Below, piece after piece: positions 39,790-56,679 of a DNA stretch of 64,000 bases. Origin of the DNA: Candidatus Eiseniibacteriota bacterium (GTDB lineage: Bacteria > Eisenbacteria > RBG-16-71-46 > JABDJR01); assembly GCA_963762255.1 (NCBI GenBank), contig CAVXKA010000002.1, forward strand, positions 320,001 through 384,000. The letters run 5' to 3'. The notes beneath the pieces are model-generated. The model saw only the letters and a program-made list of their open reading frames with translations. It searched no databases and had not been told where the DNA came from. The stretch's first letter is position 1; every line of letters begins with the position of its first letter. Position numbers and translations under genes: made by a program.

Positions 39790-39790
39790 T

Positions 39791-40177
39791 CTAGTGCCCC
39801 TCCCCCACGTGGCCGCGGTAGGCGTCGGCGTCCATGAGCTTGGCCACTTCGGCGGGATCGGCGACCTCGAGCTTGATCATCCAGCCGTCGACGTACGGAG
39901 ACTTGTTGACCTGCTCCGGCTTGTCGGCCAGGGCGGCGTTCACTTCGATCACCTTTCCCCCCACCGGGGCGAAGAGATCGCTCACCGTCTTCACCGCTTC
40001 GATGGTGCCGAAGCTCGCGCCCTGCGCGACCTCGGAACCCACCTGCGGCAACTCGATGAACACGATGTCCCCCAGTTCGCCCTGGGCGTAGTCGGTGATC
40101 CCCACCACCGCGGTCTTCCCAGTCACCCGCACCCACTCGTGATCCTCGGTGTACTTCAGTTCCTTGGGCGTTTCCAT
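39791..40177 (-). CDS. gcvH: Glycine cleavage system H protein
   Basis: YTEDHEW, GITDYAQ, EAVKTVSD (lipoyl Lys). Confidence 0.97.
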   Translation of the reverse strand: METPKELKYTEDHEWVRVTGKTAVVGITDYAQGELGDIVFIELPQVGSEVAQGASFGTIEAVKTVSDLFAPVGGKVIEVNAALADKPEQVNKSPYVDGWMIKLEVADPAEVAKLMDADAYRGHVGEGH

Positions 40178-40214
40178 GTCGTCCTCCCGGCCGCGGCCGG
40201 ATGCTCGTCCACCC

Positions 40215-41339
40215 TCACTTCACGGGCGCCTTGCGGCTCCCCTTCGTATAAAACGGAAACCGCGCCACCGCCGCCGGCTCTACCCGGCCGCGGATGTCCA
40301 CGCCGACCACTTGCCCCGGCTCGGCGTGCTTCACCTGCACGTACCCCATGCCGAGACCCTGTTCCAGCGAGGGCGCGAAGGTCCCACTGGTCACTTGCCC
40401 GATCGGTGCTCCCGCGTCCACCAGCGGGTACCCCTTGCGCGGGATGCACCGAGGGCTCTGCGGCACCAGACCGACCAGGCGGCGGCTCACGCCGCGATCC
40501 TTCTGCTTCACCAGCGCCTCGCGGCCGATGAAGCTCTCCTTGTTGAGCTTCACCGTCCACGACAGCCCCGCCTCCAGCGGCGTGGTGAAGTCGTCGATAT
40601 CGTTTCCATAGAGGCAGTAGCCCATCTCGAATCGCAGGGTGTCGCGCGCGGCGAGGCCGATGGGGACGATGCCGACGCCCTTTCCCTCCTCCATCAGGCG
40701 ATCCCAGAGATCGGCGGCCCAGCGCGCGGGCACGTAGAGTTCGAAACCGTCCTCACCGGTGTAGCCGGTGCGGGAGATGAGGACTTCGATCCCGCACACC
40801 TCGCCCCACTGCGCCGTGTAGGTCCCCATCGGATCGAGCGCTGTCTCCGTAAGGCGCTGAAGGAACGGTTGGGTCCCCGGGCCCTGCACCGCGAGCAACG
40901 CGGTGTCGTCAGACTCGTTGCGGAACTTCACGCCGGCGGGAAGATGCGCCTGCACCCAGGCTTCATCCTTGTCGATGTTGGCTCCGTTCACCACGAGCAG
41001 CACCGAGTCTTCCAGGCGGTAGACGATGAGATCGTCCACGATGCCGCCGTCCTCCCGGCACATCGGGGAGTAGACCGCCTGCCCCACCGGAATGTCGGCG
41101 ATCTTGTTGGTGACGAGACGGTCGGCCGCCTCGAGCGCACGCGCTCCGGTGAGCCGGAACTCTCCCATGTGGGAGAGGTCGAATATGCCGATGCCCTTGC
41201 GCACGGCCTCGTGCTCCGCAATCTGTCCGGAGTACTGGAGGGGCATCAAGTAGCCCGCGAAGGGAACGATCTTCGCCGCCAGGGCGAGGTGTTGATCGTA
41301 CAGGGGGGTCTTTTTCGCTTCGGTCTCTGCCGTCGCCAT
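40215..41339 (-). CDS. gcvT: Glycine cleavage system aminomethyltransferase
   Basis: KTPLY, FDLSHMG, SRTGYTGEDGFE, ARDTLRFEMG. GGAG RBS before ATG 41339. Confidence 0.97.
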   Translation of the reverse strand: MATAETEAKKTPLYDQHLALAAKIVPFAGYLMPLQYSGQIAEHEAVRKGIGIFDLSHMGEFRLTGARALEAADRLVTNKIADIPVGQAVYSPMCREDGGIVDDLIVYRLEDSVLLVVNGANIDKDEAWVQAHLPAGVKFRNESDDTALLAVQGPGTQPFLQRLTETALDPMGTYTAQWGEVCGIEVLISRTGYTGEDGFELYVPARWAADLWDRLMEEGKGVGIVPIGLAARDTLRFEMGYCLYGNDIDDFTTPLEAGLSWTVKLNKESFIGREALVKQKDRGVSRRLVGLVPQSPRCIPRKGYPLVDAGAPIGQVTSGTFAPSLEQGLGMGYVQVKHAEPGQVVGVDIRGRVEPAAVARFPFYTKGSRKAPVK

Positions 41340-41479
41340 GGATGCTCCATTGACCGCGAGGCCGTCGGAGCGAGGCAGAAGCTCCTCAGATCCTGCAGTT
41401 CCGTGTATCACGCGTTGTTCTTGGGGGCGGGCTCTTTGGACGAAAACCGACGCATGGTATCACAGGGGTCCGAGGGTGA

Positions 41480-41595
41480 GTAGCAGTCGGGGAGCCGCTT
41501 CCGCGGCTCCCCGATGCAGTCGAACATGAACCCCCCGCGCTTTGGGGGGTAGTTATCGGGGAGCCGCTTCCGCGGCTCCCCGATGCTATCGAACA
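41480..41595. repeat. Two direct copies (41480-41526 and 41549-41595) of a 47-bp GTAG-initiated palindromic REP-like element
   Basis: GTAG-NNN-TCGGGGAGCCGC-TTCC-GCGGCTCCCCGA-TGCnnTCGAACA occurs twice with a 69-bp period. Confidence 0.85.
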
Positions 41596-41627
41596 GAGCG
41601 GGCGTCGCGTCACCGCGCGACGCGTGC

Positions 41628-43280
41628 TTATCCGCGCTTTTTGCGCGATGCCTTTCGCACAGCGCGCGGTGCGGGCACGGTCGCTGCCGGCTTCGCTGCA
41701 CCGACGTTGCTGGCGGGCAGGGAGCGCAGCGAAGTCCGCGGCCCAGGCTTCGGTCCCTGGCCCGCGGGCTTCTTCCAACGGGTCAGGAACTCGGCGAGGA
41801 GCCGCACTCCGGCCCCGGTGCCGCCCAGCCCCATGATCGGACCCGGCTTCTCGTTCCAGGCCGTCCCCGCGATATCGAGATGAGCCCAGCGGTAGCCGTT
41901 GGTGAAGGCGCCCAGGAATGCCGCCGCAGTGATCGCGCCGCCGGGGCGACCGGCCGTGTTCTTGATGTCGGCGACGTCGCTCTTGACCATGTCGCGGTAT
42001 TCCGGCCAGAGAGGGAGCGGCCACGCGCGATCGCCGGAGGCCTCAGCCGCCTTGTACACCTCGTCCAGGAGCCACTCGTCGTTGGCCAGGACCCCGGACG
42101 CGGAGGAACCGAGCGCAATCACGCACGCTCCGGTGAGCGTCGCGAGATCGATCACGGCGTCCGGCTTGAACCGCTCGGCGTAGGCGAGAGCGTCGCAGAG
42201 GATGAGCCGTCCCTCGGCGTCGGTGTTCTTCACCTCGATCGTGACTCCGGCCATCGACGTCAGGATGTCGCCCGGCTTGTAGGCATCGCCATCGGGCATG
42301 TTGAACGCGGCGGGAACGATGCCGACGACCCGCAGCGGGATCTTGTTCTCGGCCACGAACCGCATGGTTCCCAGGACCGCCGCGCCGCCGCCCATGTCGA
42401 ACTTCATGAGCTCCATCGCCTCTCCCGGCTTGAGAGAGATGCCGCCGGTGTCGAAGGTGATGGCTTTCCCCACCAGGCACACCGTGCCGCGGGAGCGCGC
42501 CGGCTCGTGTTCCATGATGATGAACTTGGGCGGTGCGGCCGCGCCGCGCGCGACTCCGAGGAAGGCGCCCATGCCCAGCTTCTCGCAGTCCGCCTTCTCC
42601 AGCACCTTCACCTTGAAGCCGAACTGCCGGCCCAGACGCTTGGCGGTCTCCGCCAAATACGCGGGGGTGACTTCATTGCTGGGGCCGTTGCCGAGCTCGC
42701 GGGCCTCGTTGACCGCGTTCCCGATGCTCAGCCCAAGCGCGGCGCCCTCGCGGATCGCCTTCACCTTGGACGCCAGCTTCTCCACCACGGTCAGTTGCTC
42801 GAGCAGGAGCGGCTCCGCGCGACCGTCGCGGAAGTAGTTGTCGTAGCGGTAGAGCCCGTAGAGGAGCCCCTCGATGAGAGCCTGCGATACCTCGCGCGCG
42901 GGCTTGCCCGACTCGCCGCCATGCAGCACGGTGGCCGCCCGCTTCACCTTGAGCTTGCGGAGCACGCCGGCGAGGGTCCCGCCGAGCCGGCGAATCCCCT
43001 CGAGATCGAGCGCGTCCGCCTTGCCCAACCCCATCACCACCACGCGCTCCGGGACGCCCCGTCCCGAGACCGCGGGATAGAGAACCATGGCCTCCCCCGC
43101 CGATCCCTTGAAGTCGCCGGACGCGAGGGCGCGGGCGATGACTCCGCCCGCCGCGGCGTCCACCGCCGCGGTGGCCCCCGTCGGGTTCTTCGCCCCTTCG
43201 TAGAGGTTCACCACGACCACGGGACCACCGACATGCGCGATGTCCCCCTGCTCCACGCTCAGCTTGAACTTAACTTCCAT
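41628..43280 (-). CDS. pepA: Leucyl aminopeptidase (M17)
   Basis: GKAITFDTGG, MKFDMGG, NTDAEGRL, DLATLTGA, HLDIAG. Start MEVKF after GAGGAGG. Confidence 0.95.
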   Translation of the reverse strand: MEVKFKLSVEQGDIAHVGGPVVVVNLYEGAKNPTGATAAVDAAAGGVIARALASGDFKGSAGEAMVLYPAVSGRGVPERVVVMGLGKADALDLEGIRRLGGTLAGVLRKLKVKRAATVLHGGESGKPAREVSQALIEGLLYGLYRYDNYFRDGRAEPLLLEQLTVVEKLASKVKAIREGAALGLSIGNAVNEARELGNGPSNEVTPAYLAETAKRLGRQFGFKVKVLEKADCEKLGMGAFLGVARGAAAPPKFIIMEHEPARSRGTVCLVGKAITFDTGGISLKPGEAMELMKFDMGGGAAVLGTMRFVAENKIPLRVVGIVPAAFNMPDGDAYKPGDILTSMAGVTIEVKNTDAEGRLILCDALAYAERFKPDAVIDLATLTGACVIALGSSASGVLANDEWLLDEVYKAAEASGDRAWPLPLWPEYRDMVKSDVADIKNTAGRPGGAITAAAFLGAFTNGYRWAHLDIAGTAWNEKPGPIMGLGGTGAGVRLLAEFLTRWKKPAGQGPKPGPRTSLRSLPASNVGAAKPAATVPAPRAVRKASRKKRG

Positions 43281-46164
43281 CGCCTCCTCCTCGGGGCCGG
43301 CGCCGTGCGCGCCCCTCTGTGACCTGGGTCTTCCCGCGCGGCCGTGCCGCCGAACCGAACTCCTCCGCCAACGCGCGCCCGGTGTGGGAGGCCGCGGCCT
43401 TCGCGATCTCCTCGGGCGTTCCTTGAGCCACCACGCGCCCACCGCCGTCCCCGCCTTCGGGTCCGAGGTCGATGATGTGGTCGGCCGTCTTGATCACGTC
43501 CAGGTTATGCTCGATGACCACCACCGTATTGCCTCGATCCACGAGGCGATTCAACACCGCGAGAAGCTGGCGCACATCGTGAATGTGAAGCCCGGTGGTG
43601 GGCTCGTCGAGAATGTAAAGCGTCTTTCCCGTAGCGACCTTGGCCAGCTCCGAGGAGAGCTTCATGCGCTGCGCCTCGCCTCCGGAGAGGGTCGTGGCCG
43701 GCTGGCCCAGGTGAATGTAGCCCAAACCCACCCCTTGCAACACGTCCAACCGCCGGCGCACGGTGGGGATCGCGGCCAGGAACTCCGCCGCCTCGTCCAC
43801 CGTCATTTCCAGCACGTCATGCACGGTCTTGCCCTTGAACGTGATCTCCAGGGTTTCGCGATTGTACCGTCTCCCGTGACAACTGTCGCATCGCACGTAC
43901 ACATCGGGGAGGAAGTGCATCTCGATCTTCACGACCCCGTCCCCCGCGCAGGCTTCGCAGCGCCCCCCCTTCACGTTGAACGAGAACCGACCCGGCTTGT
44001 ACCCCCGCACCTTGGCCTCGGGAAGCTCCGCGAACAGGCTGCGGATCTCGGTGAAAATTCCGGTGTACGTCGCGGGATTGGAGCGCGGCGTGCGCCCGAT
44101 CGGGGATTGATCGATCTCCACTACCTTGTCGAGGTGCTGGAGCCCTTCGAGGCGCAGGTGGCGCCCCGCGGGCTCGGAGCCGGAGTGGAAGTGCCGCGCC
44201 GTCGCACGGAACAGGATGTCATTTACAAGCGTGCTCTTGCCCGAGCCGCTCACCCCGGTCACGCAGGTGAACACGCCGAGGGGAAAGTCCACGTCGATCT
44301 TCTTGAGGTTGTTGGCGGCGGCTTCGCGCACCACCAGTGACTTGCCATGCCCCGAGCGCCGTGCGGCGGGAAGCGGGATGGCGTCCCGTCGCGAGAGATA
44401 CCGGCCGGTGAGCGAGGTCGGGTGCGTCTCGATTTCGGCGGGAGTGCCTTCGGCGACCACTTCGCCCCCGAGCTTCCCCGCCCCGGGACCGAGATCCACG
44501 ATCCAGTCCGCCGCGCGCATGGTGTCGAGGTCATGCTCGACCACGAGCACCGTGTTTCCCAGATCCCGCATGGCGAGCAGGGTGCGCAGCAGCCGCTGGT
44601 TGTCGCGATGGTGGAGCCCGATCGAGGGCTCGTCGAGAACATAGAGCACTCCCATGAGGCGCGAGCCGACCTGGGTGGCGAGGCGGATGCGCTGGGCCTC
44701 GCCGCCGGAGAGCGTCGACGCGTTGCGGTCCAGCGTCAGGTACTCGAGCCCCACGTCGGCCATGAACCGCAGGCGCTGGCGGATCTCCTTGAGCACCTGC
44801 ACGCCGATCTTCGCCTCGCGCTCGGTGAGCTGGAGCGTGTCCACCCACGCGATCGCATCCTGGACCGCGAGCCGCACCACGTCGTGGATGGAGCGCTCGT
44901 GCACGCGAACGGCCAGGGTCTCCGGCTTGAGGCGTGCGCCGCCGCATGCGCGGCAATCGGTGGAGGCCATGTAGGCCTGGACCTGTTCGCGAACGAGTTC
45001 GCTCGTGGACTCGCGGTAGCGGCGCATGAGACCGGGGATGACCCCGCGCCACTCCTTCTTGTACTTCATGCTGAAGCGCGAGTCCTGATACTGGACGTCG
45101 ATCTCCTTGCCGCCCGCGCCCTGGAGCACCACCTGCCGGACTTTGGCCGGCAGCTTCTTCCACGGCGCGTCGAGGTCGATCCGATATGCCTTGGCCAGGG
45201 CCTTGATCTGCGAACCGAGCCAGAGAGAATCGACGCGGGTACCGTACGGGGCGATCGCGCCCTCGTTGATCGAGAGATCCGGGTTGGGGACGACGCGCTC
45301 GGGATCGATCTCCATCCGCGTCCCCAGACCGTCGCACTCGGGGCACGCGCCGTAGGGAGAGTTGAAGGAGAACATGCGCGGCTCGAGATCGGGATAGGAG
45401 AGACCGCAGGCCACGCACACCGCGTGCTCGTTCAGCACGCGGTCCTCCGCGCCGTCCACGACGACGGTGACCAGTCCACCCGAGAGCCCGAGGGCGGTCT
45501 CGATGGAGTCGGTGAGGCGCTGGCGTTGAGCGGCGTCGGGCTTGAGCCGGTCCACGACGATCTCGATGGTGTGCTTGCGCTTCTTGTCGAGCGCGGGGGC
45601 GGACTCGATCTCGACCCACGCGCCGTCGATGCGCGCGCGCAAGAACCCCTCGCGCTTCAGCTCGGCCAGCTCGGCGCGATACTCCCCTTTCCGTCCCCTC
45701 AGGATGGGAGCGAGGACTTGCGTGCGTTTGCCGGCGGCGGAGGCGAGTACGCCGTCGGCCATCTCTTGGACGGTCTGCCGGCTGATGGGGCGGTCGCACC
45801 GCGTGCAAAACTGCTTGCCCACCCGGGCGAAGAGCAGCCGGAGGTAGTCGTAGATTTCGGTGGCGGTGGCCACGGTGGAGCGGGGGTTGCGGGCGGCGGT
45901 GCGCTGCTCGATGGAGATGGCGGGCGAGAGGCCGTCGATGTGGTCGACGTCCGGCTTCTCCATCTGGCCGAGGAACTGCCGAGCGTAGGCGGAAAGGCTC
46001 TCCACGTAGCGCCGTTGCCCCTCGGCGTAGATGGTGTCGAACGCCAGGCTCGACTTGCCCGAGCCGCTCACCCCGGTGATTACCACCAGCCGGTCGCGGG
46101 GAATCTCCAGGGAGATGTTCTTGAGGTTGTGCTCGCGGGCTCCGCGAATGGAGATGGTCGCCAT
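43270..46164 (-). CDS. uvrA: Excinuclease ABC subunit A
   Basis: [10 protein letters not shown], two GVSGSGKS motifs, two LSGGEAQR motifs, zinc-finger CxxC pairs. Confidence 0.98.
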
Positions 46165-46204
46165 GGTTCTGCCTGGGGAAGGGGTCGGGAATGGAGAGCG
46201 ATAG

Positions 46205-46233
46205 AGGCTAGGACGCGTCCGGAGCGGTGTCAA
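46205..46233 (-). promoter_or_regulatory. uvrA promoter TTGACA-N17-TAGCCT
   Basis: Perfect -35 and 17-nt spacer, about 40 nt upstream of the ATG. Confidence 0.6.
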
Positions 46234-46250
46234 GGAAGCCCAACTGCTCG

Positions 46251-46279
46251 TTGACGCTCGCCATCTCGGGGCCTACCAT
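46251..46279 (+). promoter_or_regulatory. Promoter TTGACG-N17-TACCAT for the dikinase-like/maeB-like operon
   Basis: Hexamers with a 17-nt spacer, back-to-back with the uvrA promoter. Confidence 0.6.
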
Positions 46280-46326
46280 CGGCTCCGTACCGCCGGAGCG
46301 GATGCATCCCGCCACGGGGTTCGAGG

Positions 46327-49300
46327 GTGACTGAGAAACCGGGGCGGGAAACCGTCCCTTTGCACGCGCATCCGGGCACGGAACAGGCCGCCGTCGCCGG
46401 GCTCGTCGCATCGATCGTCGCGCAGTGCGCGGCGGCGATGGGCCGGCCCGAGCGCGTCGTCGAGGATTGCCGACGTCTCCGCGCGCTCCTCCCCGCTTCA
46501 CCCGCGGACTGGCCTCTCCCCGAGTTGGAGCCGCTCTTCCCTCTGCCGGCGGCCAAGTCCACCGAGTTCGCGGCGCCGGTCTGCGCGCTGATCGAGGAAG
46601 CGGCGGCCGCGATCGCCTCGCCGTGGCCCTTCTTCGACGCGCTTCTCGCCGCGCGCGACCCTGACCTCGCCGGCCGCGCCCTCGATCTCCTCGCCCGCCG
46701 CGCTCGAGACGCATCGCTGGCGATAGAACCCGAGCGGCTGCGCCGCCTTGCCGCGCGCGTCGAGGCCGAAGGCTCGCCGCTCGTCACGCCCTGCGCGCTC
46801 GACGCGCTGGGCGCGATCCTCGCCGCCGCCCGGCCCGCGCCGGCGCACGTCGCGGACGCCGCGCAAACGTTCTTCTTCGAAGCCGCCGACCCTCTCGTTC
46901 GCCGGCTTGCCGCGCGCGTGCTGGATCGATCGGGGGAACCCGCGCCGCGGGAGACCGCGATCCGTGCGCTGGGCGCCGAGGCGTTCGCGTTCCTCCACCC
47001 GTACCTCGAGTTCACGCGGGCCTCCCATCGCGATCTCCTGGAGCTCGCCTCGTCGCCGGGCGTGGTTCCCTCGCTCGCATCGCTCCAACGCGCGGAAGCG
47101 CTCGCCGGCGAGAGCGTGCTTCGCGAGGTGATCGCCCGGCTGGGCTGGCCGCACCTCAACCTGGGTCTCGAGGTCGATGCGCAGGTCGCGATCGCGCTCC
47201 CCGGCACCTTCCCGTTCCTGGTCGCCCGCGAGGAGGCGCCCTACTTCGCGGCGCTCGCGGGGGTCGAGCCGGTTCGGGAGTTGACGCTCTTCATCGCGCA
47301 CGGTGGGACGACCGGCGCCGAGGGCGCGACGGAGGATTCGGGAGGTACCGTCGCGCGCTTCCGCGGGTACAACCTCGCTCATGCCGAGGCGCTCGCCGAC
47401 ATCCTCGATCTCGCCCCGCTCACCCGCGAGAAGAGCGTGCGCATCCTCGACCGAATGGACCGCATCGTGGAGGACTTCACCGCCCTCTTCGCCCGTCACT
47501 CCGACGAGTGCGCGCGGCTCCCCGATGCGTATCGCGAACTGCGCGGCCGCGTGACGGCGGAGCTCGATCGCGACGACGGCGATACGACGCTGTCCACCGA
47601 GCTGACCCGCCTCGTGCAGATGTTCGAGGATCCGCGCTCGCTCGACGAGGTGCGCACGCTCCACGGTCTCAAGCGATACCTGCACCAGCGGGGTTTGCGA
47701 CTGGGCTTCCGATTGGTGGAGACCTCCCGGGCGACCAATCGCAGGGTCCACATCCTCCTTGCCGACCCGGACGGGCTGCGCCGCGAGTGTCCCGAGATTC
47801 GATACGTGGATTTCGAGCCGCCGGTCTCCGAGGGAGAATCGCAGATTCCGTTTCCGGTGCGCGTGGCGGTAGAAGGGTTCTCGCGACAGCTCATGCGCGG
47901 TCAGAGCGCGTTTCCGGGGCTTAGCGTGTTCTGCTACGGAAACGAGGTGCACTACTACCTCGCCTTCGGCAATCACCCGGCGTTCCTGCGCATCGACTAC
48001 TCCCCGCCTCTCCAGGGAGGCATGATCGATCTCGAGTACTTCGGGGTCAGCAAGTCCGAGCTCAATCAGCATCCCGATCCGGAACTCACCGCGCTGCGGG
48101 CCTGCTTTCGCCGCCTCGACTTCGATGTGCAGGTGGAGAGCACCCACGTGCGGGCGCGCTACGACAAGGAGCGGGCCCTCGACCTGGGGGCGATCTGCGA
48201 GAAGGCGGGCGCGCTCTTCCGCCTCGCCCCTCACCTCATGGACGTGGATTGGGCGGTGGGAGGACTGCGTCTGTCGGCGGACGCGCGCGGCAAGGTCGCC
48301 GAGGCCTGGGCCGACTTCCTGGCTCGCTGGGGAAGCCTGCCCAGCGATCGTTTCCTGACCGGCGACCGCCAAGGGATTCTGGTGGGCTTGGTGCGCGCGC
48401 CGGGGGGCCCGCGGGAGCTGGTGTGGAGCGGCGAAGGCGCGTACCAGGACCGCTTCTCGTCCCCTTTCCCCCCCGAGGCCTGGGCGCGGTGGCAGGAAGC
48501 GATCCGCGGGTTGGGGTTGGAGAGGCCGGTATCGGTCCCTGATGTCGATCGGCGCTACGCGCAACTCCGGTTCGAGCACGAGTTCCTGACCCCGCTGCGC
48601 GCGGCGAAGGCGCGCGGGCAGATCGTCGCCGAGGAGGGTACCCATCGCCGCGCCGCGGCCGACCGTTTCCGCCTCGAGCACGAGGCCGAGATCTTCGCTC
48701 GCCTTCTCGCCGGGCCCTCGGCGGCGCTCACCGGCGCGATCGCGCTGGCGCGCCTGGTGAGCCCCCTCGAGCGCACCCTGCGCTTCCAGACCACCGGCGT
48801 GGTCAACGGCCATGAGGTGCAGCGCGCGCGGCTTCCGCTGCGAGGGGAGGACATCGGCCTGTTCGTGCTGCGCGGACCGCGCGGCATCATCCGCCTCGCG
48901 CTCTACTCGCGCGACGGCGTCCTCTGGAGCCGCCGCGAGGACGCCGGCTCACCCTGGACCTTCAGCGGAGAAACCGATGCCGCGGTCCTCGCCGCGCTCC
49001 TTCGCGCGAACGGCTATCCGCCGCTCCCGTTCGATGGAAGCGCCGTGGACGCGGAAGACACCGAGGATCTCCGCCGGCGCCTGCGCCGGCTGGACCCGGC
49101 CCCGCGCCTGCGAAGCCTCTCCGGCGAGCGCGTGGTCACCGGTCTTCGCGCCTCTCCCGGACGCGCGGTCGGACCCGCGCGGCTTGGGATGGGCGGCCGC
49201 TCCCCCCGCGATTTCGCGGGCGCCATCCTCGTCACCCCGCGCGTGGGCCCCGAGGACAACGCGTTCCTCTTCAGCGCCGCCGCCATCGTCTCGACCGGAG

Positions 49301-51420
49301 GCGGCATCCTGAGCCATGCCGGACTCCTCGCCATCCAATTCCGCAAGCCGGCCCTCATCGTTCCCGGCCGCTGGTCGGTGGAAGCGGACGGCGCCCCGAC
49401 CCTGAGTCTTCCCTGTCTCGAGTACGGCGAGGAGGAGCGCGAGGTCGAGGGCTCGCGCGTCGTCCTGCGCACTGACCTTCAGGAGCGGGAGCACTCCCTG
49501 CGCGAAGGCGATCTGGTCGCGGTGGACGCGGCTGCGGGAACACTGCGCGTGTTGGGGCGCGGCCCCGAGGCGCTGGCGCTCCACGACGGGCTCTGCCGGC
49601 TCGAGGACGCCCGCCGTCGGCTGGCCGGCGATCGTCCCGACGAGGACATCCTCGTCCTGCGCGGCCATCGTCTCAAGGCGCGTCATCAGCTCGCCAAGCT
49701 CGTCGCCCGCTTCACCGATCCCGCACTGGCGCGACATACCGTGGACGAACTCCTTCTGCGCGAACCGCGTCTCGACGATCCCGATCGCGTACCGGAGACC
49801 GCGGCGCTTCTCGCCGCGCTCCTGGCGAACCCGGTGGTGGGGGCGCGCGCGCGCGAGCATGCGGCGGCGCTGACCGAGGATCTCGACCGGCGGCGGCAAG
49901 CCCTGGTGTCGCGGTCGGCGTTCCGCATCCCGACCTCGCGCTCCGCCTACGAGGTACTGCAGCTTCGCCTCGACGCGCTCCGTCTCAGCGAGGCCTTCCG
50001 CGCCGCGCGCGAACTGCTGCCGTCGGCCGAGAGTGCAGGTGTCGGCTCCGGTGCCGACGCAGCCGACCTCGATGCCCTCGCGCTCGAACAGCTCCGCCGG
50101 CTCCTCGCCGGGCGTCTGCGCACCCTGCGCGATCGTTCCTTCGACGACGCGGGACGACCCCGGCGGCGCCATCTCCTGCGGGAGGCCGAGCGGCTCGCCA
50201 AGGTCTGCGGCGGGTCGGAAGGCACCCGGCGCCGGCTGCACGCCGCACGGGCCGGACTCGCGCAGGAGGACGACGCCCGCGTTCGCTCGCTGTCCACCCG
50301 ACGAGTCCTCGGCGCGCCGGACGGCGGATTGGAGCTGCTCCCCCTGGTGGGAGGCAAGGCGGCCAACCTCGCCGAGATCGAGCGCCTGGCCGGATCGCAC
50401 GTCGTGCCGCCGTGGTTCGCGGTCACGCATCACGCTTTCGAGGAGATGCTCGCGTCACCGGTCGCGGTGCGGGCCGCCGGCCTGGAGAGCCTGATCGCCG
50501 GCGCGCACACGCTTCACGAGGCGATCGAGTCGATTCTGGGCCATAGCGAGCTTGGAATAGCACAGCGCGCTGCGGCTATTCGTTTGCTATGGGATCAGAG
50601 CCGCCTGCCCGAGGATCTCGCCGCCGAGATCCTGGAGGCGTGCGCGAAGATCCTCGCCGTCCCCGGCGACGATCAACCTCTCCCCGGTTTCGTGGCCATT
50701 CGCTCCTCCTCCCGCGAAGAGGACGCCGAGGCTGCCGCCCGCGCCGGCGAGTTCGACACGTTTCTCTTCGTGCGCGGGGAAGCCGCGGTGCTGGACCATC
50801 TCAAGCGCGCGTGGAGCGGCCTATGGTCGGAACGGGCCATCCACAACCGGGCCGTCCTCGAGAGTTCCACCGAAAAGGCCGGCGGCGGCATCGTCGTCCA
50901 ACGCATGATCTTTTCGCGGGTCGCCGGCGTCGTGCAGACGGTCAACGTGGCCGAGAACGAACCCCGCGAGTTCGTCATCAACGCCGGCCTCGGTCTCGGG
51001 GAAGGGGTGGTCTCCGGGGCGGTGGCCGCGGACCAGATCGTGGTGGCGCGCGAGGGCGATCTCGAGAAGGGGCCGCTCCGTTTCCGCTACGCCACCGCCG
51101 ACAAGACCGAGCGCGTGGTCCTGAATCGCGAGGCGGGTCTGGGGACACGGCGCGAGGAAACCCTCTACCACCAGCGCCTGCGCCCGGCGCTAGAGTACGT
51201 GGAGCTCTGCGAGCTGGTGCGCGCGGCGGCCCGCCTCGAGGAGGCCTACGGCTATCCCCTCGACCTGGAATTCGGGATCGAGGGAACGCGGCTCTGGATC
51301 CTCCAGGCGCGACCCGTTGCCGTCTTTCACGCTCTCTTGCGGGAGACTCTCGACCGTCGGCCCCTGGCCCCCCGGTCCCGATCACGGATTCCCCGAGCCC
51401 ATGAGGAGATCGCGTCATGA
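46327..51420 (+). CDS. Giant (1697 aa) PEP-utilising/dikinase-family protein: unknown N-terminus, swivelling phospho-His domain, C-terminal ATP-grasp domain
   Basis: ASPGRAVG and GGGILSHAGLLA (His997); then VGGKAANL (about 1342), AIRSSSREED..AGEFDTFL, GLGEGVVSG, LDLEFG..LWILQARP. Confidence 0.88.
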   Translation: MTEKPGRETVPLHAHPGTEQAAVAGLVASIVAQCAAAMGRPERVVEDCRRLRALLPASPADWPLPELEPLFPLPAAKSTEFAAPVCALIEEAAAAIASPWPFFDALLAARDPDLAGRALDLLARRARDASLAIEPERLRRLAARVEAEGSPLVTPCALDALGAILAAARPAPAHVADAAQTFFFEAADPLVRRLAARVLDRSGEPAPRETAIRALGAEAFAFLHPYLEFTRASHRDLLELASSPGVVPSLASLQRAEALAGESVLREVIARLGWPHLNLGLEVDAQVAIALPGTFPFLVAREEAPYFAALAGVEPVRELTLFIAHGGTTGAEGATEDSGGTVARFRGYNLAHAEALADILDLAPLTREKSVRILDRMDRIVEDFTALFARHSDECARLPDAYRELRGRVTAELDRDDGDTTLSTELTRLVQMFEDPRSLDEVRTLHGLKRYLHQRGLRLGFRLVETSRATNRRVHILLADPDGLRRECPEIRYVDFEPPVSEGESQIPFPVRVAVEGFSRQLMRGQSAFPGLSVFCYGNEVHYYLAFGNHPAFLRIDYSPPLQGGMIDLEYFGVSKSELNQHPDPELTALRACFRRLDFDVQVESTHVRARYDKERALDLGAICEKAGALFRLAPHLMDVDWAVGGLRLSADARGKVAEAWADFLARWGSLPSDRFLTGDRQGILVGLVRAPGGPRELVWSGEGAYQDRFSSPFPPEAWARWQEAIRGLGLERPVSVPDVDRRYAQLRFEHEFLTPLRAAKARGQIVAEEGTHRRAAADRFRLEHEAEIFARLLAGPSAALTGAIALARLVSPLERTLRFQTTGVVNGHEVQRARLPLRGEDIGLFVLRGPRGIIRLALYSRDGVLWSRREDAGSPWTFSGETDAAVLAALLRANGYPPLPFDGSAVDAEDTEDLRRRLRRLDPAPRLRSLSGERVVTGLRASPGRAVGPARLGMGGRSPRDFAGAILVTPRVGPEDNAFLFSAAAIVSTGGGILSHAGLLAIQFRKPALIVPGRWSVEADGAPTLSLPCLEYGEEEREVEGSRVVLRTDLQEREHSLREGDLVAVDAAAGTLRVLGRGPEALALHDGLCRLEDARRRLAGDRPDEDILVLRGHRLKARHQLAKLVARFTDPALARHTVDELLLREPRLDDPDRVPETAALLAALLANPVVGARAREHAAALTEDLDRRRQALVSRSAFRIPTSRSAYEVLQLRLDALRLSEAFRAARELLPSAESAGVGSGADAADLDALALEQLRRLLAGRLRTLRDRSFDDAGRPRRRHLLREAERLAKVCGGSEGTRRRLHAARAGLAQEDDARVRSLSTRRVLGAPDGGLELLPLVGGKAANLAEIERLAGSHVVPPWFAVTHHAFEEMLASPVAVRAAGLESLIAGAHTLHEAIESILGHSELGIAQRAAAIRLLWDQSRLPEDLAAEILEACAKILAVPGDDQPLPGFVAIRSSSREEDAEAAARAGEFDTFLFVRGEAAVLDHLKRAWSGLWSERAIHNRAVLESSTEKAGGGIVVQRMIFSRVAGVVQTVNVAENEPREFVINAGLGLGEGVVSGAVAADQIVVAREGDLEKGPLRFRYATADKTERVVLNREAGLGTRREETLYHQRLRPALEYVELCELVRAAARLEEAYGYPLDLEFGIEGTRLWILQARPVAVFHALLRETLDRRPLAPRSRSRIPRAHEEIAS

Positions 51421-53681
51421 TCCGCCGAGAGGAATCGCTCAAGTACCACTCGCTCGACCGCCCGGGAAAGATCGAGGTGCGGGCCACCAAGCCCTGCCTC
51501 ACTCCGCGCGAGATGCGCCAGGCCTACCTCCCGGGCGCCTCGTACCCGGCCGAGGAGATCCACCGCGATGTCTCCTCTGTCTTCAAGTACACGGCTCGCG
51601 GCAACCTCGTCGGTGTGATCACCAACGGCTCGGCCGTGCCCGGCCTCGGAGCTGTGGGGCCCTATGCGGCCAAGCCGATGCAGGAAGGGATGGCGGTCCT
51701 CTTCAAGCGCCTCGCCGACATCGACGTGTTCGACCTCGAACTCGACACCGCCGACCCCGACCGGTTCATCGAGACGGTGAAGCTCCTCGAGCCGACCTTC
51801 GGCGGGATCAACCTGAAGGACATTCGCGCGCCGGAGGGGCTCTACATCCACGACCGGCTCACGGAACTCCTGGAGATCCCGGTCTTCCACGAGAACCTCT
51901 ACGGGACCGCGGTGGTGGCGGCGGCGGCGCTGCTGAACGCGCTCGATCTGGTGGAGAAGCCGATCGACGCGGTGGACGTCGTGATCTCCGGCGCGGGAAC
52001 GGTCGGCACCGGGTGCGCCCGCCTTCTGGTCGCTCTCGGCGTGCGCCCGGAGCGCCTGCGCGTGTACGACGTGGCCGGGCTGATTCGCCCGGACCGCGGC
52101 GATCTTCACGACTATCAGCGCCCCTTCGCGCGCGAAGACGCACCGCGGGATCTCGCCGAGGGTCTGCGCGGCGCCGACGTGTTTGTGGGCGCCTCCGCCG
52201 GCGGCGTGCTCACTCCCGACATGGTCCGGGGCATGGGGCGCTATCCCATCGTCCTCGCCCTGGCTACCCCCGAGCCGGAGATCACCTACGACGCCGCGCG
52301 CGCCAGCCGCCGCGACGTGGTGGCGGCCACCGCCGTCGCAGGCTCCCCCAACGCGGTGCTGGATGTGCTGAGTTTCCCCTACATCTTCCGCGGGGCTCTT
52401 GACGTGCAGGCCCGCCGCATCACGCAGGGAATGCTGGTGGCGGCGGCGCGCGCGCTGGCCGATCTCGCGCGCGAGGACGTGGTCGAGGAGGTGGAACGCG
52501 CCTACGGAGCCGGCCGGTTCAGCTTCGGCCCGGAGTACCTGCTCCCCAAAGCGATCGACCCGCGCATCCTGGTATGGGAATCCTCCGCCGTGGCCCAGCA
52601 GGCGATCCTGGACGGGGTGGCGAGCCGGCCGACGGCCGCCGAACCGCACCGCGATTCCCTGGCCGCGCGGCTCGGAACCGGCCGTGAGACGCTGCGCAGC
52701 ATGATCCTCGCCGCGCGCCGAAGCAAGCTGCGCGCGGTCTTCTCGGAGGGGACCAACGAAACAATTCTGCGCGCGTGCAGCATCCTCGCCGACGAAGGAA
52801 TCGCGAGCCCGATTCTTCTCGGACGCGAGGACGAGGTGCGGGCGGCCATCGAGGAACTCCGCCTGGATCTCCCCGGCGTGCCGATCATCGACCCCGCCCG
52901 GAGCCCGCGCCTGGAGACGTACACCGAATCCTACTTCGCTCTGCGCGGCCGGCGCGGCGTCATGCGCGCGGCCGCTACGCAGCGCCTGCTCAGGCGCGAG
53001 TACTACGCCGCGATGATGCTCCACTGCGGCGACGCCGACCTCATGGTCTCCGGCGTCTCCGCCCACTATGCGGAATCGCTGCGCACGATCCTCGAGGTGA
53101 TCGGGACCGCGCCCGGCATCCGTCGGGTCTCCGGGCACTACCTCGTGCTGTTGCCCAAACGCATGTTCGTGCTCGCCGATTGCGCGGTCAATATCAACCC
53201 GGACGCCGAGGAGCTCGCCGAGATCGCGCTTCTCGCCGCCGACCTCGCGCGGTCGCTCGGAGAAAAGCCGCGTGTAGCCATGCTTTCCTTCTCGAACTTC
53301 GGGAGCGTGGATCATCCGGTCACGCGCAAGGTGCGCCGCGCCGCGGAGATCGTGAAGCAGCGCGCTCCGGATCTGGAGATCGACGGGGAGATGCAGCTCC
53401 CCATCGCGCTGGACGGGGAGATGCGCCGCCGGTACTTCCCCTTCTCCTCCCTGGGGGACGACGCCAACGTGCTGGTCTTCCCGGGACTCGAGCCGGGGAA
53501 CCTGGCCCTCCACCTGCTGCAACACCTGGGGGGCGCGGTGCCGGTGGGGCCGATCCTCCTCGGCACGCGCTTCCCCGCACACGTGCTGCAGTTCGGCTAC
53601 TCCGTGGAAGAGGTGGTCAACCTCACCACGGTGGCGGCGGTGCAGGCGGCGGCGGGGCGACGCTCTACTGAAGCATCGTGA
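51417..53681 (+). CDS. maeB: MaeB-like malic enzyme-phosphotransacetylase fusion with degenerate malic-enzyme active site
   Basis: PGKIEV..TKP, YTARGNLV, FPYIFRGALDV, FGPEYLLPK; PTA domain with AMLSFSNFGS and IDGEMQ. Catalytic motifs are altered (EGM, LKDI, HENLY). Confidence 0.85.
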   Translation: MIRREESLKYHSLDRPGKIEVRATKPCLTPREMRQAYLPGASYPAEEIHRDVSSVFKYTARGNLVGVITNGSAVPGLGAVGPYAAKPMQEGMAVLFKRLADIDVFDLELDTADPDRFIETVKLLEPTFGGINLKDIRAPEGLYIHDRLTELLEIPVFHENLYGTAVVAAAALLNALDLVEKPIDAVDVVISGAGTVGTGCARLLVALGVRPERLRVYDVAGLIRPDRGDLHDYQRPFAREDAPRDLAEGLRGADVFVGASAGGVLTPDMVRGMGRYPIVLALATPEPEITYDAARASRRDVVAATAVAGSPNAVLDVLSFPYIFRGALDVQARRITQGMLVAAARALADLAREDVVEEVERAYGAGRFSFGPEYLLPKAIDPRILVWESSAVAQQAILDGVASRPTAAEPHRDSLAARLGTGRETLRSMILAARRSKLRAVFSEGTNETILRACSILADEGIASPILLGREDEVRAAIEELRLDLPGVPIIDPARSPRLETYTESYFALRGRRGVMRAAATQRLLRREYYAAMMLHCGDADLMVSGVSAHYAESLRTILEVIGTAPGIRRVSGHYLVLLPKRMFVLADCAVNINPDAEELAEIALLAADLARSLGEKPRVAMLSFSNFGSVDHPVTRKVRRAAEIVKQRAPDLEIDGEMQLPIALDGEMRRRYFPFSSLGDDANVLVFPGLEPGNLALHLLQHLGGAVPVGPILLGTRFPAHVLQFGYSVEEVVNLTTVAAVQAAAGRRSTEAS

Positions 53682-54792
53682 GGAAGACGCCTGCCACCAT
53701 CGCCGTGCCGATCACGCCGGCCACGTTCGGTCCCATGGCGGGCATGAGGGGGTTCACCCGCCCCTCGGTCTCGTCGGACACGAGCTTCTGAACCACCCGC
53801 GCAGCCATGGGCACCGCCGACACCCCGGCGGCGCCGATGCAAGGATTGATCTTCTTCCCCTCGGGCAGCAAGAGGTTCAAGAACTTGCCGAGGAGTACGC
53901 CGCCGGCAGTGCTGAAGATGAACGCCACCGCGCCCAGGAGCAGGATGAGAATCGTCTTCACGGTGAGGAAGTTCGCCGCGTCCATGGTGGCCCCGACTGC
54001 GAGACCGAGGAACATCGTCACGATGTCGATCAACGCAGACCCGGCGGTCTTGCGTAGCCGCTCGGTCACCCCGCACTCCCGCAGGAGATTCCCGAACATG
54101 AGCATGGCCATCAGGGCGGCCGAAGACGGAACCGCCAGCGAGGCCAGCGTCCCGGTGATGATCGGGAAGAGCACCACCGCCACCTTGCTCACTTCCTTCG
54201 GCTGCGGCATGTCGATGCCCCGCTCCCGGCGCGTGGTCAGCAACCGGATCACAGGGGGCTGGATGATCGGAACCAGCGACATGTAGCTGTACGCGGCCAC
54301 GGCGATCGGCCCCAGAAGATGGGGCGCCAGGCGGGTGGCGAGATAGATCGAGGTCGGGCCGTCGGCGCCGCCGATGATGCCGATGCTCGCCCCCTCCTGC
54401 GGCGTGAACCCCAGGAGATACACCGCCCCCATGCCGGCTACGAAGACGCCTAGCTGGGCGGCCGCTCCGAGGAGGAACGTCAGGGGCTGGGCGAGCAGCG
54501 GACGAAAATCGGTCAGCGCCCCGACTCCCAGGAAGATCACGGGGGGGAGCAGATCGGTGAGGATCCCCTGCCGGTAGACGAGGTTGATGATCCCGGTGTC
54601 GTGAGAACCGAGTTCGGCGAGCGGTAAGTTGGCGATGAGGATGCCGAACCCGATCGGGATCAGCAGCAACGGTTCGTAGTCCTTGGCCACGGCCAGATAG
54701 AGCAGCACGCCGGCGACCACGTACATGATCGCGTTGCCAAGGCTCAGGTGAGCGAAGCCCGACTGGGTGACGAGCTGCTGGACGGTCTCCAT
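53665..54792 (-). CDS. oadB: Na+-translocating decarboxylase beta subunit
   Basis: YEPLLLIPIGFG, IGIIGGADGPTSIY, AAYSYMSLVPIIQPP, GVSAVPMAAR, MGPNVAGVIG. Confidence 0.95.
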   Translation of the reverse strand: METVQQLVTQSGFAHLSLGNAIMYVVAGVLLYLAVAKDYEPLLLIPIGFGILIANLPLAELGSHDTGIINLVYRQGILTDLLPPVIFLGVGALTDFRPLLAQPLTFLLGAAAQLGVFVAGMGAVYLLGFTPQEGASIGIIGGADGPTSIYLATRLAPHLLGPIAVAAYSYMSLVPIIQPPVIRLLTTRRERGIDMPQPKEVSKVAVVLFPIITGTLASLAVPSSAALMAMLMFGNLLRECGVTERLRKTAGSALIDIVTMFLGLAVGATMDAANFLTVKTILILLLGAVAFIFSTAGGVLLGKFLNLLLPEGKKINPCIGAAGVSAVPMAARVVQKLVSDETEGRVNPLMPAMGPNVAGVIGTAMVAGVFLTMLQ

Positions 54793-54804: not shown

Positions 54805-56679
54805 CTAGGAAAGCACCAGGATCGGCTGCGTCGAATCGATCTCTTGACCGACCGCGGCGTTCACCGCCACCACAACGCCGTCGACAGGGGCGCGGATGTC
54901 GTGCTTGGCCTTCATCGCTTCGACCGCGGCCACCGTTTGCCCCTTCTTCACGTGGTCCCCCACCTTCACGGAGACCCCCACCACCTCGACGCGGCCCCCG
55001 AACGGGGAGCGCACCGCCACCGAACCGCCACCCGAAGGTGGCGCACTCGCAGGCGTGCCGGCCGCCGGGGCCGCCGCCGGCGCAGGCGCCGGGACTCCCG
55101 CCCCGAGGCCCATAGTCGCCGCCGGCTCCAGCGTGATCGTGAACACGCGCGCGCGGCCGTTCTCCTCCACCGTGCATCGAGTCTGCGTCGGGCCGGCGAC
55201 CGGCGCGGCGGGCGCCGGCGCTGGCGGCGTCGCCTGACCCTCCGTCCCCTTCTTCTTCAGGGGGACATCGATCTTCGGTTTGCCGGTCAGGAGGCGAATG
55301 CCTTCGTTCATCTCCAGCGGCATCCCCGGCACGATCGCGGAGAGAACCAGGAACACGTTCTCATCGGTGACCGGAAGGCCGCGCTCGGCAAGCGCGCTCC
55401 GAGCGGTCACGATGTGATTGGGGGCCGCCTCGAGGGGATCCCCGTCGAAGGGCGGCAACTCCAGCTCCTCCGACGCCTTTTTCACGACCATCGGGTCGGG
55501 AGGCAGCGGGGTCTTGCCGAAGTAGCCCAGCACGGCGCGCGCGTAGCCGTCCTCGATGCGCTCCCAGCGTCCGTAGAGAACGTTGTTGAACGCCTGGAGC
55601 CAGTATTGCTGGCTGCCCGGCGTGACGCTGGTCCAGGCTCCGCCGGCCTCCACGACCACCGGGAACTCGGCCAGCACCTCGCCGTACTTCTCCAGAATCC
55701 CCGCCTTCACCATCATGTGGACGTTGGGACCGATCGCGCCTCCGGGCATGGGGAAACCGACCACCCGCGCGTCGGCGGTGGTCGTGGCCGGATTGAAGGC
55801 GTAGTCCTTGAGCAGGTCGGTGAGGCACTCTTCGATCGGGTTCATGGATGCCGGGTCGATGTCGAGCGAGTAGCCGGTCCCCTTCAGGGCGTGGGCCATG
55901 GAGCGCACATCCGGCTGAACGGTGCCGCTGGCCAGCGGGCGCACAGAGAGATCGATTCCGTCAGCCCCTCCCTCGATGCCCGCCATATAGCAGGCCACCG
56001 CCATGCTCGCGGTGTCGTGGGTGTGGATCCAGAGCGGCATCTCCGGGGGCATCAGCTTGCGGACCCCCACGGCCGTCTCGTAGACCGTGCGCGGGTCGCA
56101 GGTGCCGCTCGCGTCTTTCAGGCAGAGGCTATCGATGCGCACCCCGCCGGCGAGCAAGCGCCGCGCGATGTCGATGTAGAACCCCGACGTATGGACGCGA
56201 TCCGACACGAAGGGGAGACCCATGAGGGCCACGCACGCCTGGTGGTGCATCCCCGCCTCGACGATCGGTCGCGCGGTGTTGATGAGGTTGCGCACATCGT
56301 TCATGTAGTCGAAGTTGCGGTCCCAGGTGGTCCCGTGCTTCTTCATCAGCTTGGCCTGGAGCCGCAGCGCCTCCAACGACTGCGTGGTGAGGGTGACCCC
56401 CGACACCGATCGCGTGAGGATCTGCAAGTCCGCGTCCGGCCCCACCGCATCGCGGATCGCCTGCATGTCGGCGAAGGGATCCTCCCCGAGATAGAAGTAG
56501 GGTGCCTGGTAGCGGGCGCCGCCTCCGAACTCGAAGTGGCGGATCCCGAGACGGGAGGAGAGCTTCACCGCCTCCAGGAAATCAGCCAACCGGACCTTGC
56601 CGCCGAACGCGCTTTGCAGACCGTCGCGGAAGGCCGTCATCATGACCCGGATCTGCTTGGGCTTCTCGGTGCGGATCAT
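54805..56679 (-). CDS. oadA: Oxaloacetate decarboxylase alpha subunit (carboxyltransferase + biotinyl domain)
   Basis: FRDGLQS, LKDASG, HTH metal motif, MPGG, VTPGSQ, Pro/Ala linker, EAMK biotinylation site. Confidence 0.9.
   Translation of the reverse strand: MIRTEKPKQIRVMMTAFRDGLQSAFGGKVRLADFLEAVKLSSRLGIRHFEFGGGARYQAPYFYLGEDPFADMQAIRDAVGPDADLQILTRSVSGVTLTTQSLEALRLQAKLMKKHGTTWDRNFDYMNDVRNLINTARPIVEAGMHHQACVALMGLPFVSDRVHTSGFYIDIARRLLAGGVRIDSLCLKDASGTCDPRTVYETAVGVRKLMPPEMPLWIHTHDTASMAVACYMAGIEGGADGIDLSVRPLASGTVQPDVRSMAHALKGTGYSLDIDPASMNPIEECLTDLLKDYAFNPATTTADARVVGFPMPGGAIGPNVHMMVKAGILEKYGEVLAEFPVVVEAGGAWTSVTPGSQQYWLQAFNNVLYGRWERIEDGYARAVLGYFGKTPLPPDPMVVKKASEELELPPFDGDPLEAAPNHIVTARSALAERGLPVTDENVFLVLSAIVPGMPLEMNEGIRLLTGKPKIDVPLKKKGTEGQATPPAPAPAAPVAGPTQTRCTVEENGRARVFTITLEPAATMGLGAGVPAPAPAAAPAAGTPASAPPSGGGSVAVRSPFGGRVEVVGVSVKVGDHVKKGQTVAAVEAMKAKHDIRAPVDGVVVAVNAAVGQEIDSTQPILVLS

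Follow-up and report, generated by a model that had tools for sequence, protein, structure and literature searches.

A conserved clade of MaeB-like proteins with a rebuilt malic pocket, encoded next to a giant dikinase-like protein

What does a hybrid malic enzyme become when its catalytic lysine and most of the acidic residues around its metal are replaced, and the rest of the chain is kept in full? This question is raised by a gene of a Candidatus Eiseniibacteriota bacterium (assembly GCA_963762255.1, contig CAVXKA010000002.1), located at 51417..53681 on the + strand of a 64,000-nucleotide stretch of DNA, the window of this report, and encoding a product that resembles the malic enzyme MaeB from end to end. 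Hybrid malic enzymes are textbook examples of control in central carbon metabolism and serve as a model of long-range allostery, and a deep sister clade that lacks the catalytic lysine and the metal site, and still has the architecture of a sensor, points to a scaffold reused for something else. The MaeB-like protein belongs to such a clade, which is discrete, conserved, and under purifying selection rather than in decay, and its gene directly follows that of a giant, dikinase-like protein. We consider it a little better than an even bet, with a probability of roughly 0.55, that this protein is no longer a malic enzyme and acts as the CoA-ester and dinucleotide-sensing partner of what would be a new dikinase.

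The gene is an uninterrupted frame of 754 amino acids plus a stop codon, as a first-pass annotation made from the sequence had also described it, and its G+C content at third codon positions (GC3) of 0.88 is usual for real genes of this window of about 68% GC. Pfam detects three domains in the product, all of them above cut-off, namely malic (PF00390, 50.5 bits), Malic_M (PF03949, 63 bits), and PTA_PTB (PF01515, 319 bits), and the MaeB architecture of an N-terminal malic domain, an NAD-binding domain, and a C-terminal PTA domain is thereby present. A phmmer search against PDB sequences returned end-to-end matches to the MaeB of Bdellovibrio (6zng, 663 bits) and to that of E. coli (8jzo, 608 bits), and the HMMER alignments to both run without gaps across the active-site motifs. 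The NCBIfam MaeB model NF009501 gives 688.9 bits and its cut-off of 1178 is not reached, nor is that of any other curated NCBIfam model. An open reading frame (ORF) of 751 amino acids on the opposite strand (51327-53582, -) covers the whole gene as well; because its GC3 is 0.73 versus 0.88 in the sense frame, it is regarded as a high-GC artefact.

The malic-enzyme-like domain, as delimited by Pfam and the alignments, takes up amino acids 1-420 (51417..52676, +), and its four motif strings lie at amino acids 86-97, 131-136, 157-164, and 305-316. In the first, KPMQEGMAVLFK is aligned onto KPVMEGKGxLFK, with Met92 (codon start 51690) opposite the lysine, and in the second, INLKDI is aligned onto INLEDI, with Lys134 (codon start 51816) opposite the glutamate and Asp135 kept. 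In the third, FHENLYGT is aligned onto FHDDQHGT, so that Glu159-Asn160 stand opposite the two aspartates and LY opposite QH (codons of Glu159 to Leu161 at 51891-51899). The fourth, TAVAGSPNAVLD, falls onto TGRSDYPNQVNN, with AVAGSPNAVLD opposite GRSDYPNQVNN, i.e., QxNN has become AxLD. The codons of the other residues discussed below start at 51525 (Tyr37), 52116 (Gln234), 52266 (Thr284), 52353 (Ala313), and 52362 (Asp316), and the GxGxxG loop is intact at amino acids 192-197 (G192/G194/G197).

The meaning of these positions can be read from the MaeB of Bdellovibrio, for which the published study (PMC7902834) names Y52, K107, E149, and D174 as catalytic residues, K250, R242, and D233 as determinants of NADP specificity, with K250 binding the 2'-phosphate, and N300 and V330 as nicotinamide contacts, and states that a divalent cation is required. 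The Bdellovibrio numbers exceed those of the MaeB-like protein by 15, and by 16 beyond a one-residue gap near amino acid 227. The cross-subunit tyrosine of the tautomerisation step, Y52, is kept as Tyr37, and so are R242 (Arg227), D233 (Asp218), and V330 (Val314). Changed are the general acid/base lysine K107 (Met92), E149 (Lys134), D174 (Glu159) and the adjacent D175 (Asn160), as well as K250 (Gln234) and N300 (Thr284). Among the acidic residues around the divalent metal, Asp135 alone is retained, the others being Lys134, Glu159, and Asn160.

The first-pass annotation had called the protein a MaeB pseudo-enzyme with Lys to Met92, a metal Glu to Lys134, an Asp to Asn160, and TGRSDxPNQVNN replaced, and the alignments to 6zng and 8jzo agree with it in every residue and number, and also in the retention of Tyr37, the dinucleotide loop, and the PTA domain that Pfam recognises. 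Its list was incomplete, however: both aspartates of the DD pair are changed (D to E and D to N), QH is replaced by LY, and the losses of the 2'-phosphate lysine and of the nicotinamide asparagine were missing from it. Altogether the general base, two acidic residues of the metal site, the asparagine pair of the substrate motif, the arginine of GRSD, and the 2'-phosphate lysine are gone; several of these polar positions are now hydrophobic, and Lys134 lies near Asp135, Glu159, and Asp316. Such a pocket may no longer bind metal and malate, and it may either be closed by a salt-bridge network, as would suit the suggestion of the first-pass annotation that the lysine could stand in for the charge of the metal ion, or accept a different ligand. 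With regard to the cofactor, the residues present make dinucleotide binding possible and NADP specificity unlikely.

Is this rebuilt pocket a peculiarity of one sequence? Peptide patterns specific to the clade, used to scan a single genome of each species, yielded 178 relatives; all locus counts given here refer to the best 80 of them, which cover 13 named phyla (10 of the loci are unnamed). Loci whose match began after residue 1 or ended before residue 735, or whose ORF was longer than 800 amino acids, five in all, did not enter the protein comparison. The comparison set then consisted of 192 variant-type sequences (the query, 75 loci-derived sequences, and 116 database proteins, 740-775 amino acids), in which some proteins may be present twice, once from each source, and related sequences do not count as independent, and of 24 canonical MaeB. 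All of the latter (24/24) have Tyr at the column of Tyr37, Lys at 92, Glu at 134, Asp at 135, 159, and 160, Gln at 161, Lys at 234, Asn at 284, Gln at 313, and Asn at 316. The variants share the tyrosine (192/192) and Asp135 (188/192), whereas their column 92 is hydrophobic in 189 of 192 sequences (M 82, I 53, V 47, L 7), column 134 is Lys in 176 and S, R, or L in others, and the remaining columns hold Glu159 (183), Asn160 (189), Leu161 (187), Gln234 (187), Thr284 (164), Ala313 (177), and Asp316 (191). Since the residues K, E, D, D, Q, N, N occur without exception in the 24 canonical MaeB, these replacements are not due to chance, and they are fixed across variant sequences of at least 13 named phyla.

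Fourteen positions are fixed, at 90% or more, to one residue in the variant and to another in the canonical sequences; all of them lie in the malic-like domain and none in the PTA domain, and a further 89 positions of the malic domain are conserved in both groups. The query carries the signature of the clade, i.e., KP[ML]QEG[MVI], an INLKDI-like string, FHENL, and PNA[VIL]xD, plus the giant gene directly upstream. Compared with known MaeB structures (6zng/6znj and 8jzo), the variant shares the three-domain architecture and the length, can be aligned throughout, and keeps, besides the tyrosine, the GxGxxG loop, and the D233 and R242 equivalents, the hook region and most acetyl-CoA contacts; it differs by the general base, which is now Met, Ile, or Val, by the metal-site and cofactor residues listed above, by QxNN, and by GRSD, which has become variable.

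Database searches delimit the clade in a similar manner. A word-indexed search with residues 1-420 gave, among the matches listed, 119 further clusters (made at 90% identity) that are 69-78% identical to the query, and those that were inspected have the same replacements; across phyla, the variant sequences are 60-78% identical. When a 50%-identity library was searched exhaustively, the variant type amounted to a single full-length representative (P0121; 981 bits at 61% identity) and some fragments, below which the score drops to 657 bits, at 43% identity, for canonical MaeB. All four motifs are canonical in 25 of the 32 full-length representatives, and three are of the variant type, while one deviates in the last motif only, one is without the N-terminus, and two (P0140 and P0142) are degenerate. 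The latter two are full-length MaeB-like proteins with independently degenerate active sites, one example being KPxxEGR together with the loss of the FHDDQHGT motif; the branch of P0140 is very long (5.28), and these proteins may be further pseudo-malic-enzyme lineages.

The relationships among these sequences were examined with a maximum-likelihood tree of the malic domain, made by a quick search that does not settle the root, from 66 rows that include every second loci-derived sequence (41 variant, 19 canonical, and 6 small malic enzymes). All 41 variant rows fall on one side of a branch with an SH-aLRT support of 99 and a length of 0.59, the branches within the clade are short, and the nearest variant sequences to the query are from metagenome-assembled genomes (MAGs) of Acidobacteriota. 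Selection was estimated as the ratio of nonsynonymous to synonymous substitution rates (dN/dS) by the Nei-Gojobori method in 14 pairs, with malic-domain values for 12 of them, the other two being saturated. The malic-like domain has ratios of 0.023-0.119 in 10 close within-family pairs and of 0.17-0.20 in two pairs of the query at about 75% identity, no higher than those of the PTA domain (0.031-0.226), and it is therefore under constraint. The suggestion of the first-pass annotation, that selection had acted for a non-catalytic or altered function, is supported by these ratios and by the conservation of the replacements in 192 sequences; a query under relaxed selection beside close homologues that keep K, E, and D, the picture of simple decay, was not found.

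If the protein is maintained in this form, with what does it work? The decisive context, absent from the first-pass annotation, is the obligatory gene upstream. The MaeB-like gene is the second of only two + strand genes, the first being a giant ORF at 46327..51420 (+) that encodes 1697 amino acids with a GC3 of 0.85. The two genes share an ATGA start/stop overlap (51417..51420, +), which suggests translational coupling, and a Shine-Dalgarno-like GAGGAG (51403..51408, +) precedes the MaeB-like start codon by 8 nt, still within the 3' end of the giant gene. A scan of 46000-54000 for sigma-70-like promoters found one site, a consensus match upstream of the giant gene (46251..46279, +), versus 0.3 expected, and none between the two genes.

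This arrangement is strictly kept. By tblastn, a homologue of the giant is directly upstream on the same strand in 80/80 loci, and the two genes overlap by 4 bases in 42 of these and by other lengths in 6, are 0-50 nt apart in 23, and are irregularly spaced in 9, mostly frameshifted assemblies; overlaps or gaps of at most 50 nt are thus found in 71/80. The adjacency was also present in 5/5 relatives that were checked. Among 40 relatives, the central region of the giant occurs in G001, G004-G007, G021, and G022 (a 19-bit match in G020 was disregarded), and variant-type MaeB matches occur only where this region is present, that is in G004-G007, in G022, and, frameshifted, in G021; in G001, where no variant was seen, the contig ends inside the giant gene. 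In G021 (locus L116, G021:C1:2149500-2159500), matches to the entire MaeB-like gene and to the 3' portion of the giant gene are spread over three frames with internal TGA stops, and the giant's central region is unbroken; this breakage is a matter of either decay or long-read assembly errors. Such a strict and, to judge by the overlap, translationally coupled pairing makes an obligate partner of the dikinase the best reading of the MaeB-like protein.

Natural fusions of the two genes were considered as Rosetta-stone evidence and are not relied on. The apparent single ORF of 2430 amino acids at L113:2985-10274 has its ATP-grasp matches in another frame than the rest, and is for this reason probably a frameshift or a high-GC artefact. 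In P0271 (2410 amino acids), the C-terminal part of the ATP-grasp is without a match, and the fragment P0127 joins a giant C-terminus to a MaeB-like N-terminus. A complex prediction with the His domain (925-1078) and the ATP-grasp (1335-1690) of the giant and the malic-like domain (1-405), with alignments for each, scored 0.00 in two runs that had no controls, and this score counts neither for nor against binding.

The giant partner begins with N-terminal helical repeats and a central region; a phospho-histidine swivel domain comes next, and a helical linker connects it to an ATP-grasp of the PEP (phosphoenolpyruvate) synthase type at the C-terminus. Pfam recognises PEP-utilizers at amino acids 965-1070 and PPDK_N at 1339-1666 (197.7 bits), finds no match at E<=10 in amino acids 1-958, and does not find the PEP-utilizers_C TIM barrel (PF02896); no NCBIfam model reaches its cut-off, the best PEP-synthase model being NF005057 at 196.7 versus 598. 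The swivel domain (amino acids 925-1078; 49099..49560, +) has a profile match to the swivel of PPDK (5jvn, E 8.8e-20) and the motif GGILSH, with His997 encoded at 49315-49317; G992, L995, S996, and H997 are invariant in 30/30 giant orthologues. The ATP-grasp (amino acids 1335-1690; 50329..51396, +), matched by PPDK_N and by PEP synthase 8a8e (E 2.7e-73), has the motif RSSSxEED, and its K1344, R1459-S1461, E1465-D1466, E1648, Q1660, and R1662 are invariant in the same 30 orthologues.

Less can be recognised in the other half of the chain. Residues 1-200 are helical-repeat-like and weakly match a designed repeat protein. The central region (amino acids 200-930; 46924..49116, +) is conserved and has a core at about 440-680 that equals the ATP-grasp in conservation and includes invariant His, Lys, Arg, and Asp residues, and its AlphaFold2 (AF2) models are confident (pLDDT 86.6 with pTM 0.85, and 83.7). 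It matches no PDB sequence, has 0 Foldseek matches to PDB structures at E<=0.001 in a library that extends to 8 April 2026 and may lack 9QVI, the entry for the central domain of the glucan water dikinase, and has no usable match in the ESM Atlas. By analogy with known dikinases, we infer that the giant is an autophosphorylating dikinase with its acceptor site in this novel region, which would then be a phosphoryl-acceptor domain.

The closest parallel for such an order is the glucan water dikinase StGWD1. The giant resembles it in its sequence of acceptor-side domains, His domain, and C-terminal ATP-binding domain of the PPDK/PEP-synthase type, and in its similar size class. The His domain of StGWD1 spans amino acids 931-1050 with H992 (PMC13553574), and that of the giant about 925-1078 with H997. 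The giant differs from it because no CBM45 or other carbohydrate module is detected by Pfam, because a helical linker of about 260 amino acids is inserted before the ATP-grasp, and because its central region matches nothing in the PDB copies searched, among which the central domain of the glucan water dikinase may be absent. With PEP synthase and PPDK the giant shares, domain by domain, a PEP-synthase-like ATP-grasp (8a8e) and a PPDK-like swivel His domain (5jvn). The order in those enzymes is ATP-grasp, swivel His domain, and PEP/pyruvate TIM barrel; in the giant it is permuted, the ATP-grasp following the His domain, and the PEP-utilizers_C barrel is missing.

The PTA-like domain of the MaeB-like protein (amino acids 430-741; 52704..53639, +; PTA_PTB 319 bits) is the part on which sensing would depend. 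In the Bdellovibrio study (PMC7902834), the PTA domains of MaeB are described as a hexameric acetyl-CoA sensor that turns the malic domains by about 70 degrees, and the catalytic residues of active Pta as absent from them. Of the 11 acetyl-CoA contacts given there, eight are identical or conservative in the protein studied here and highly conserved in the clade, as mapped by eye from the HMMER alignment; these are R510, R513, Y551, R556, N592, N695, P712, and Q725. The PTA_PTB fold is shared with Pta, and the scores of the Pta equivalog models lie under their cut-offs (TIGR00651 245.4 vs 311.2, NF007233 278.5 vs 310, NF004167 261.8 vs 418).

The rest of the genome (4.14 Mb in 3 contigs) shows which reactions are already provided for. 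It has three malic-domain loci, namely the variant, a large-type malic enzyme of 614 amino acids, and a canonical MaeB at C1:813048-815369, with KPVMEGK, INLEDI, FHDDQHGT, and GRSDYPNQVNN all present, to which the variant is about 48% identical. The second, canonical maeB for which the first-pass annotation had proposed to look is thus found in the same genome, and a canonical-motif MaeB also accompanies the variant-type match in 6/6 relatives (G004-G007, G021, G022). A search of the genome for a stand-alone Pta found none. There is a separate PPDK-type locus with PPDK_N and PEP-utilizers_C (C3:720022-722714, -), and the genome also encodes Enzyme I and another PPDK_N protein (C2:1350695-1351819, -, in an open frame of 1092 amino acids). 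Because these three are present, the giant is not simply the PEP-forming enzyme of the organism, and the idea that it replaces PEP synthase or PPDK is unsupported. The matches of the PPDK-type locus lie in separate open frames of 795, 364, and 179 amino acids, which may reflect a frameshift or domain-wise hits.

Taken as a mechanism, the reading that we favour would run as follows. The MaeB-like protein would be a selected, full-length MaeB paralogue that does not catalyse the oxidative decarboxylation of malate. Its scaffold would be preserved, with the dimer-forming malic fold and its cross-subunit tyrosine, the Rossmann GxGxxG loop, and a PTA domain with most CoA contacts, around a metal/malate site re-lined by Lys134, Glu159, Asn160, Leu161, Ala313, Asp316, and a hydrophobic residue at 92. 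Both proteins would be expressed from the two-gene, translationally coupled operon. The giant, in analogy with PEP synthase and glucan water dikinase, would transfer the beta-phosphate of ATP onto His997 and from there to an acceptor in its own central domain. The MaeB-like protein would bind a CoA thioester on its PTA core and a dinucleotide on its malic-like domain, and would relay the metabolic state to the dikinase by a domain rotation of the MaeB type. More tentatively, and with a little less than even odds, the two genes may form an unrecognised phosphotransfer machine, in which a permuted dikinase passes phosphate from His997 to the central region, and a dead MaeB hexamer gates this transfer by CoA-thioester and NAD(H) or presents the acceptor in its rebuilt pocket.

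Several points weigh against a sensing partner of a dikinase. Three acyl-pocket residues of the PTA domain deviate, A590, L698, and H699 (T to A, Y to L, and K to H), and because of them the ligand may not be acetyl-CoA. All 80 loci are MAG-derived, with no cultured carrier seen, a physical association of the two proteins would have to be deduced from their genomic pairing, and the apparent fused forms L113 and P0271 are unreliable. Finally, Asn160, Asp316, Leu161, and Tyr37 are near-invariant and not obviously needed by a pure sensor or scaffold, and this near-invariance fits a new catalytic site or a specific ligand site equally well.

The last point leads to the alternative that survives best, a new enzyme, in which the malic-like domain would carry out a different, metal-independent reaction, as one of consecutive steps or in a channelled complex with the dikinase. 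Examples would be an NAD-linked chemistry without decarboxylation, or an action on the phosphorylated product or the substrate of the dikinase. A new catalytic or acceptor-presenting role is kept in play by the fact that Asn160, Asp316, Leu161, and Tyr37 hardly vary, and the constancy of Glu159 and Lys134, the GxGxxG loop, and the strict gene pairing speak for it as well. The change to Gln234 also bears on the cofactor, being of the kind that distinguishes malic enzymes preferring NAD from those preferring NADP (human ME2 Gln362 vs Lys362). A hint of C3/C4 acid metabolism comes from the recurrence of oadB and oadA, which adjoin the module in 7/80 and 6/80 loci, respectively (e.g., L046, L056, L057, L061, L066), and in the window, where the beta subunit of a Na+-translocating oxaloacetate decarboxylase (53665-54792, -; OAD_beta 475.7 bits) and an oxaloacetate decarboxylase alpha/biotin-carrier protein (54805-56679, -) are convergent with the MaeB-like gene, with 3' ends that overlap by 17 nt. 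It is only a hint of oxaloacetate/pyruvate metabolism, because four of the loci are from related Ignavibacteriales. Against a new enzyme, the acid/base lysine has been exchanged for hydrophobic residues that vary from sequence to sequence, polar positions of the substrate site are hydrophobic or variable (R307 to L/S, N315 to L/V/M, Q313 to A), the nicotinamide-contact asparagine is mostly Thr, and the data point to no reaction that could be named as a candidate. We therefore regard a new enzymatic function as possible, though on balance doubtful.

Mere co-regulation is a poorer explanation. It holds that the MaeB-like protein works alone, e.g., as a stand-alone metabolite binder, and simply shares an operon with the giant; the evidence for coupling is indeed wholly genomic, and no reliable natural fusion was found. 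Yet an adjacency kept in all 80 loci and 13 named phyla amid variable surroundings, with the 4-base overlap in more than half of them (42/80), and the confinement of variant matches, among the 40 relatives, to genomes with the giant central domain make this improbable.

Even less credit can be given to the idea that the protein is still a malic, malolactic, or oxaloacetate-decarboxylating enzyme that employs alternative catalytic residues. The overall fold, Tyr37, Asp135, and the Rossmann loop have been retained in its favour. Work on eukaryotic malic enzymes identified the second and third acidic residues as metal ligands, and here two of the three acidic metal ligands, the general base lysine, and both asparagines of the substrate motif are gone; moreover, two canonical malic enzymes are already encoded in the genome. 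We consider this very improbable. A decaying duplicate or a sequencing artefact, for which nothing in the genome of the window speaks and of which only the broken copy of G021, with its several frameshifts that may be assembly errors, is reminiscent, is refuted by the conserved replacements and the low dN/dS, together with the intact frame and the 60-78% identity across phyla.

The MaeB-like protein and the giant of about 1,700 amino acids constitute a two-gene system in at least 13 named phyla, mostly known from metagenomes, and the central 700 or so residues of the giant have neither a sequence nor a fold relative in the PDB copies searched. In the full-text literature, taken without most subscription journals or supplements, we found no description of the variant MaeB clade or of its pairing with a dikinase. 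If the two genes do form the phosphotransfer machine outlined above, which would be widespread in uncultured, anaerobe-rich phyla, a malic enzyme would for the first time be seen in the role of a non-catalytic subunit, possibly in connection, given the recurrent oadAB neighbours, with a new reaction at the PEP-pyruvate-oxaloacetate node. Once found, the acceptor of the dikinase could reveal a new phosphorylation reaction, and the two-gene system may prove categorically new if the reaction is novel. Regarding annotation, the variants appear in databases as "NADP-dependent malic enzyme", "malate dehydrogenase (oxaloacetate-decarboxylating)(NADP+)", or "phosphate acyltransferase", and because of such automatic names, metabolic reconstructions of these lineages probably over-count malic enzymes.

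The surroundings of the module vary. An all-against-all clustering of ORFs found no other neighbour conserved in more than 11 of the 80 loci, the next real family being a peptidase (11/80). Upstream of the giant gene, the minus strand of the window (36960-46233, -) encodes a divergent UvrA-like ABC ATPase of 987 amino acids, an M17 leucyl aminopeptidase, and the T and P proteins of glycine cleavage, the latter in the two-subunit form; these are ordinary housekeeping genes, and their adjacency to the module is not conserved. Shadow ORFs such as the antisense frame of 751 amino acids make up a "family" of 75 loci in the same clustering.

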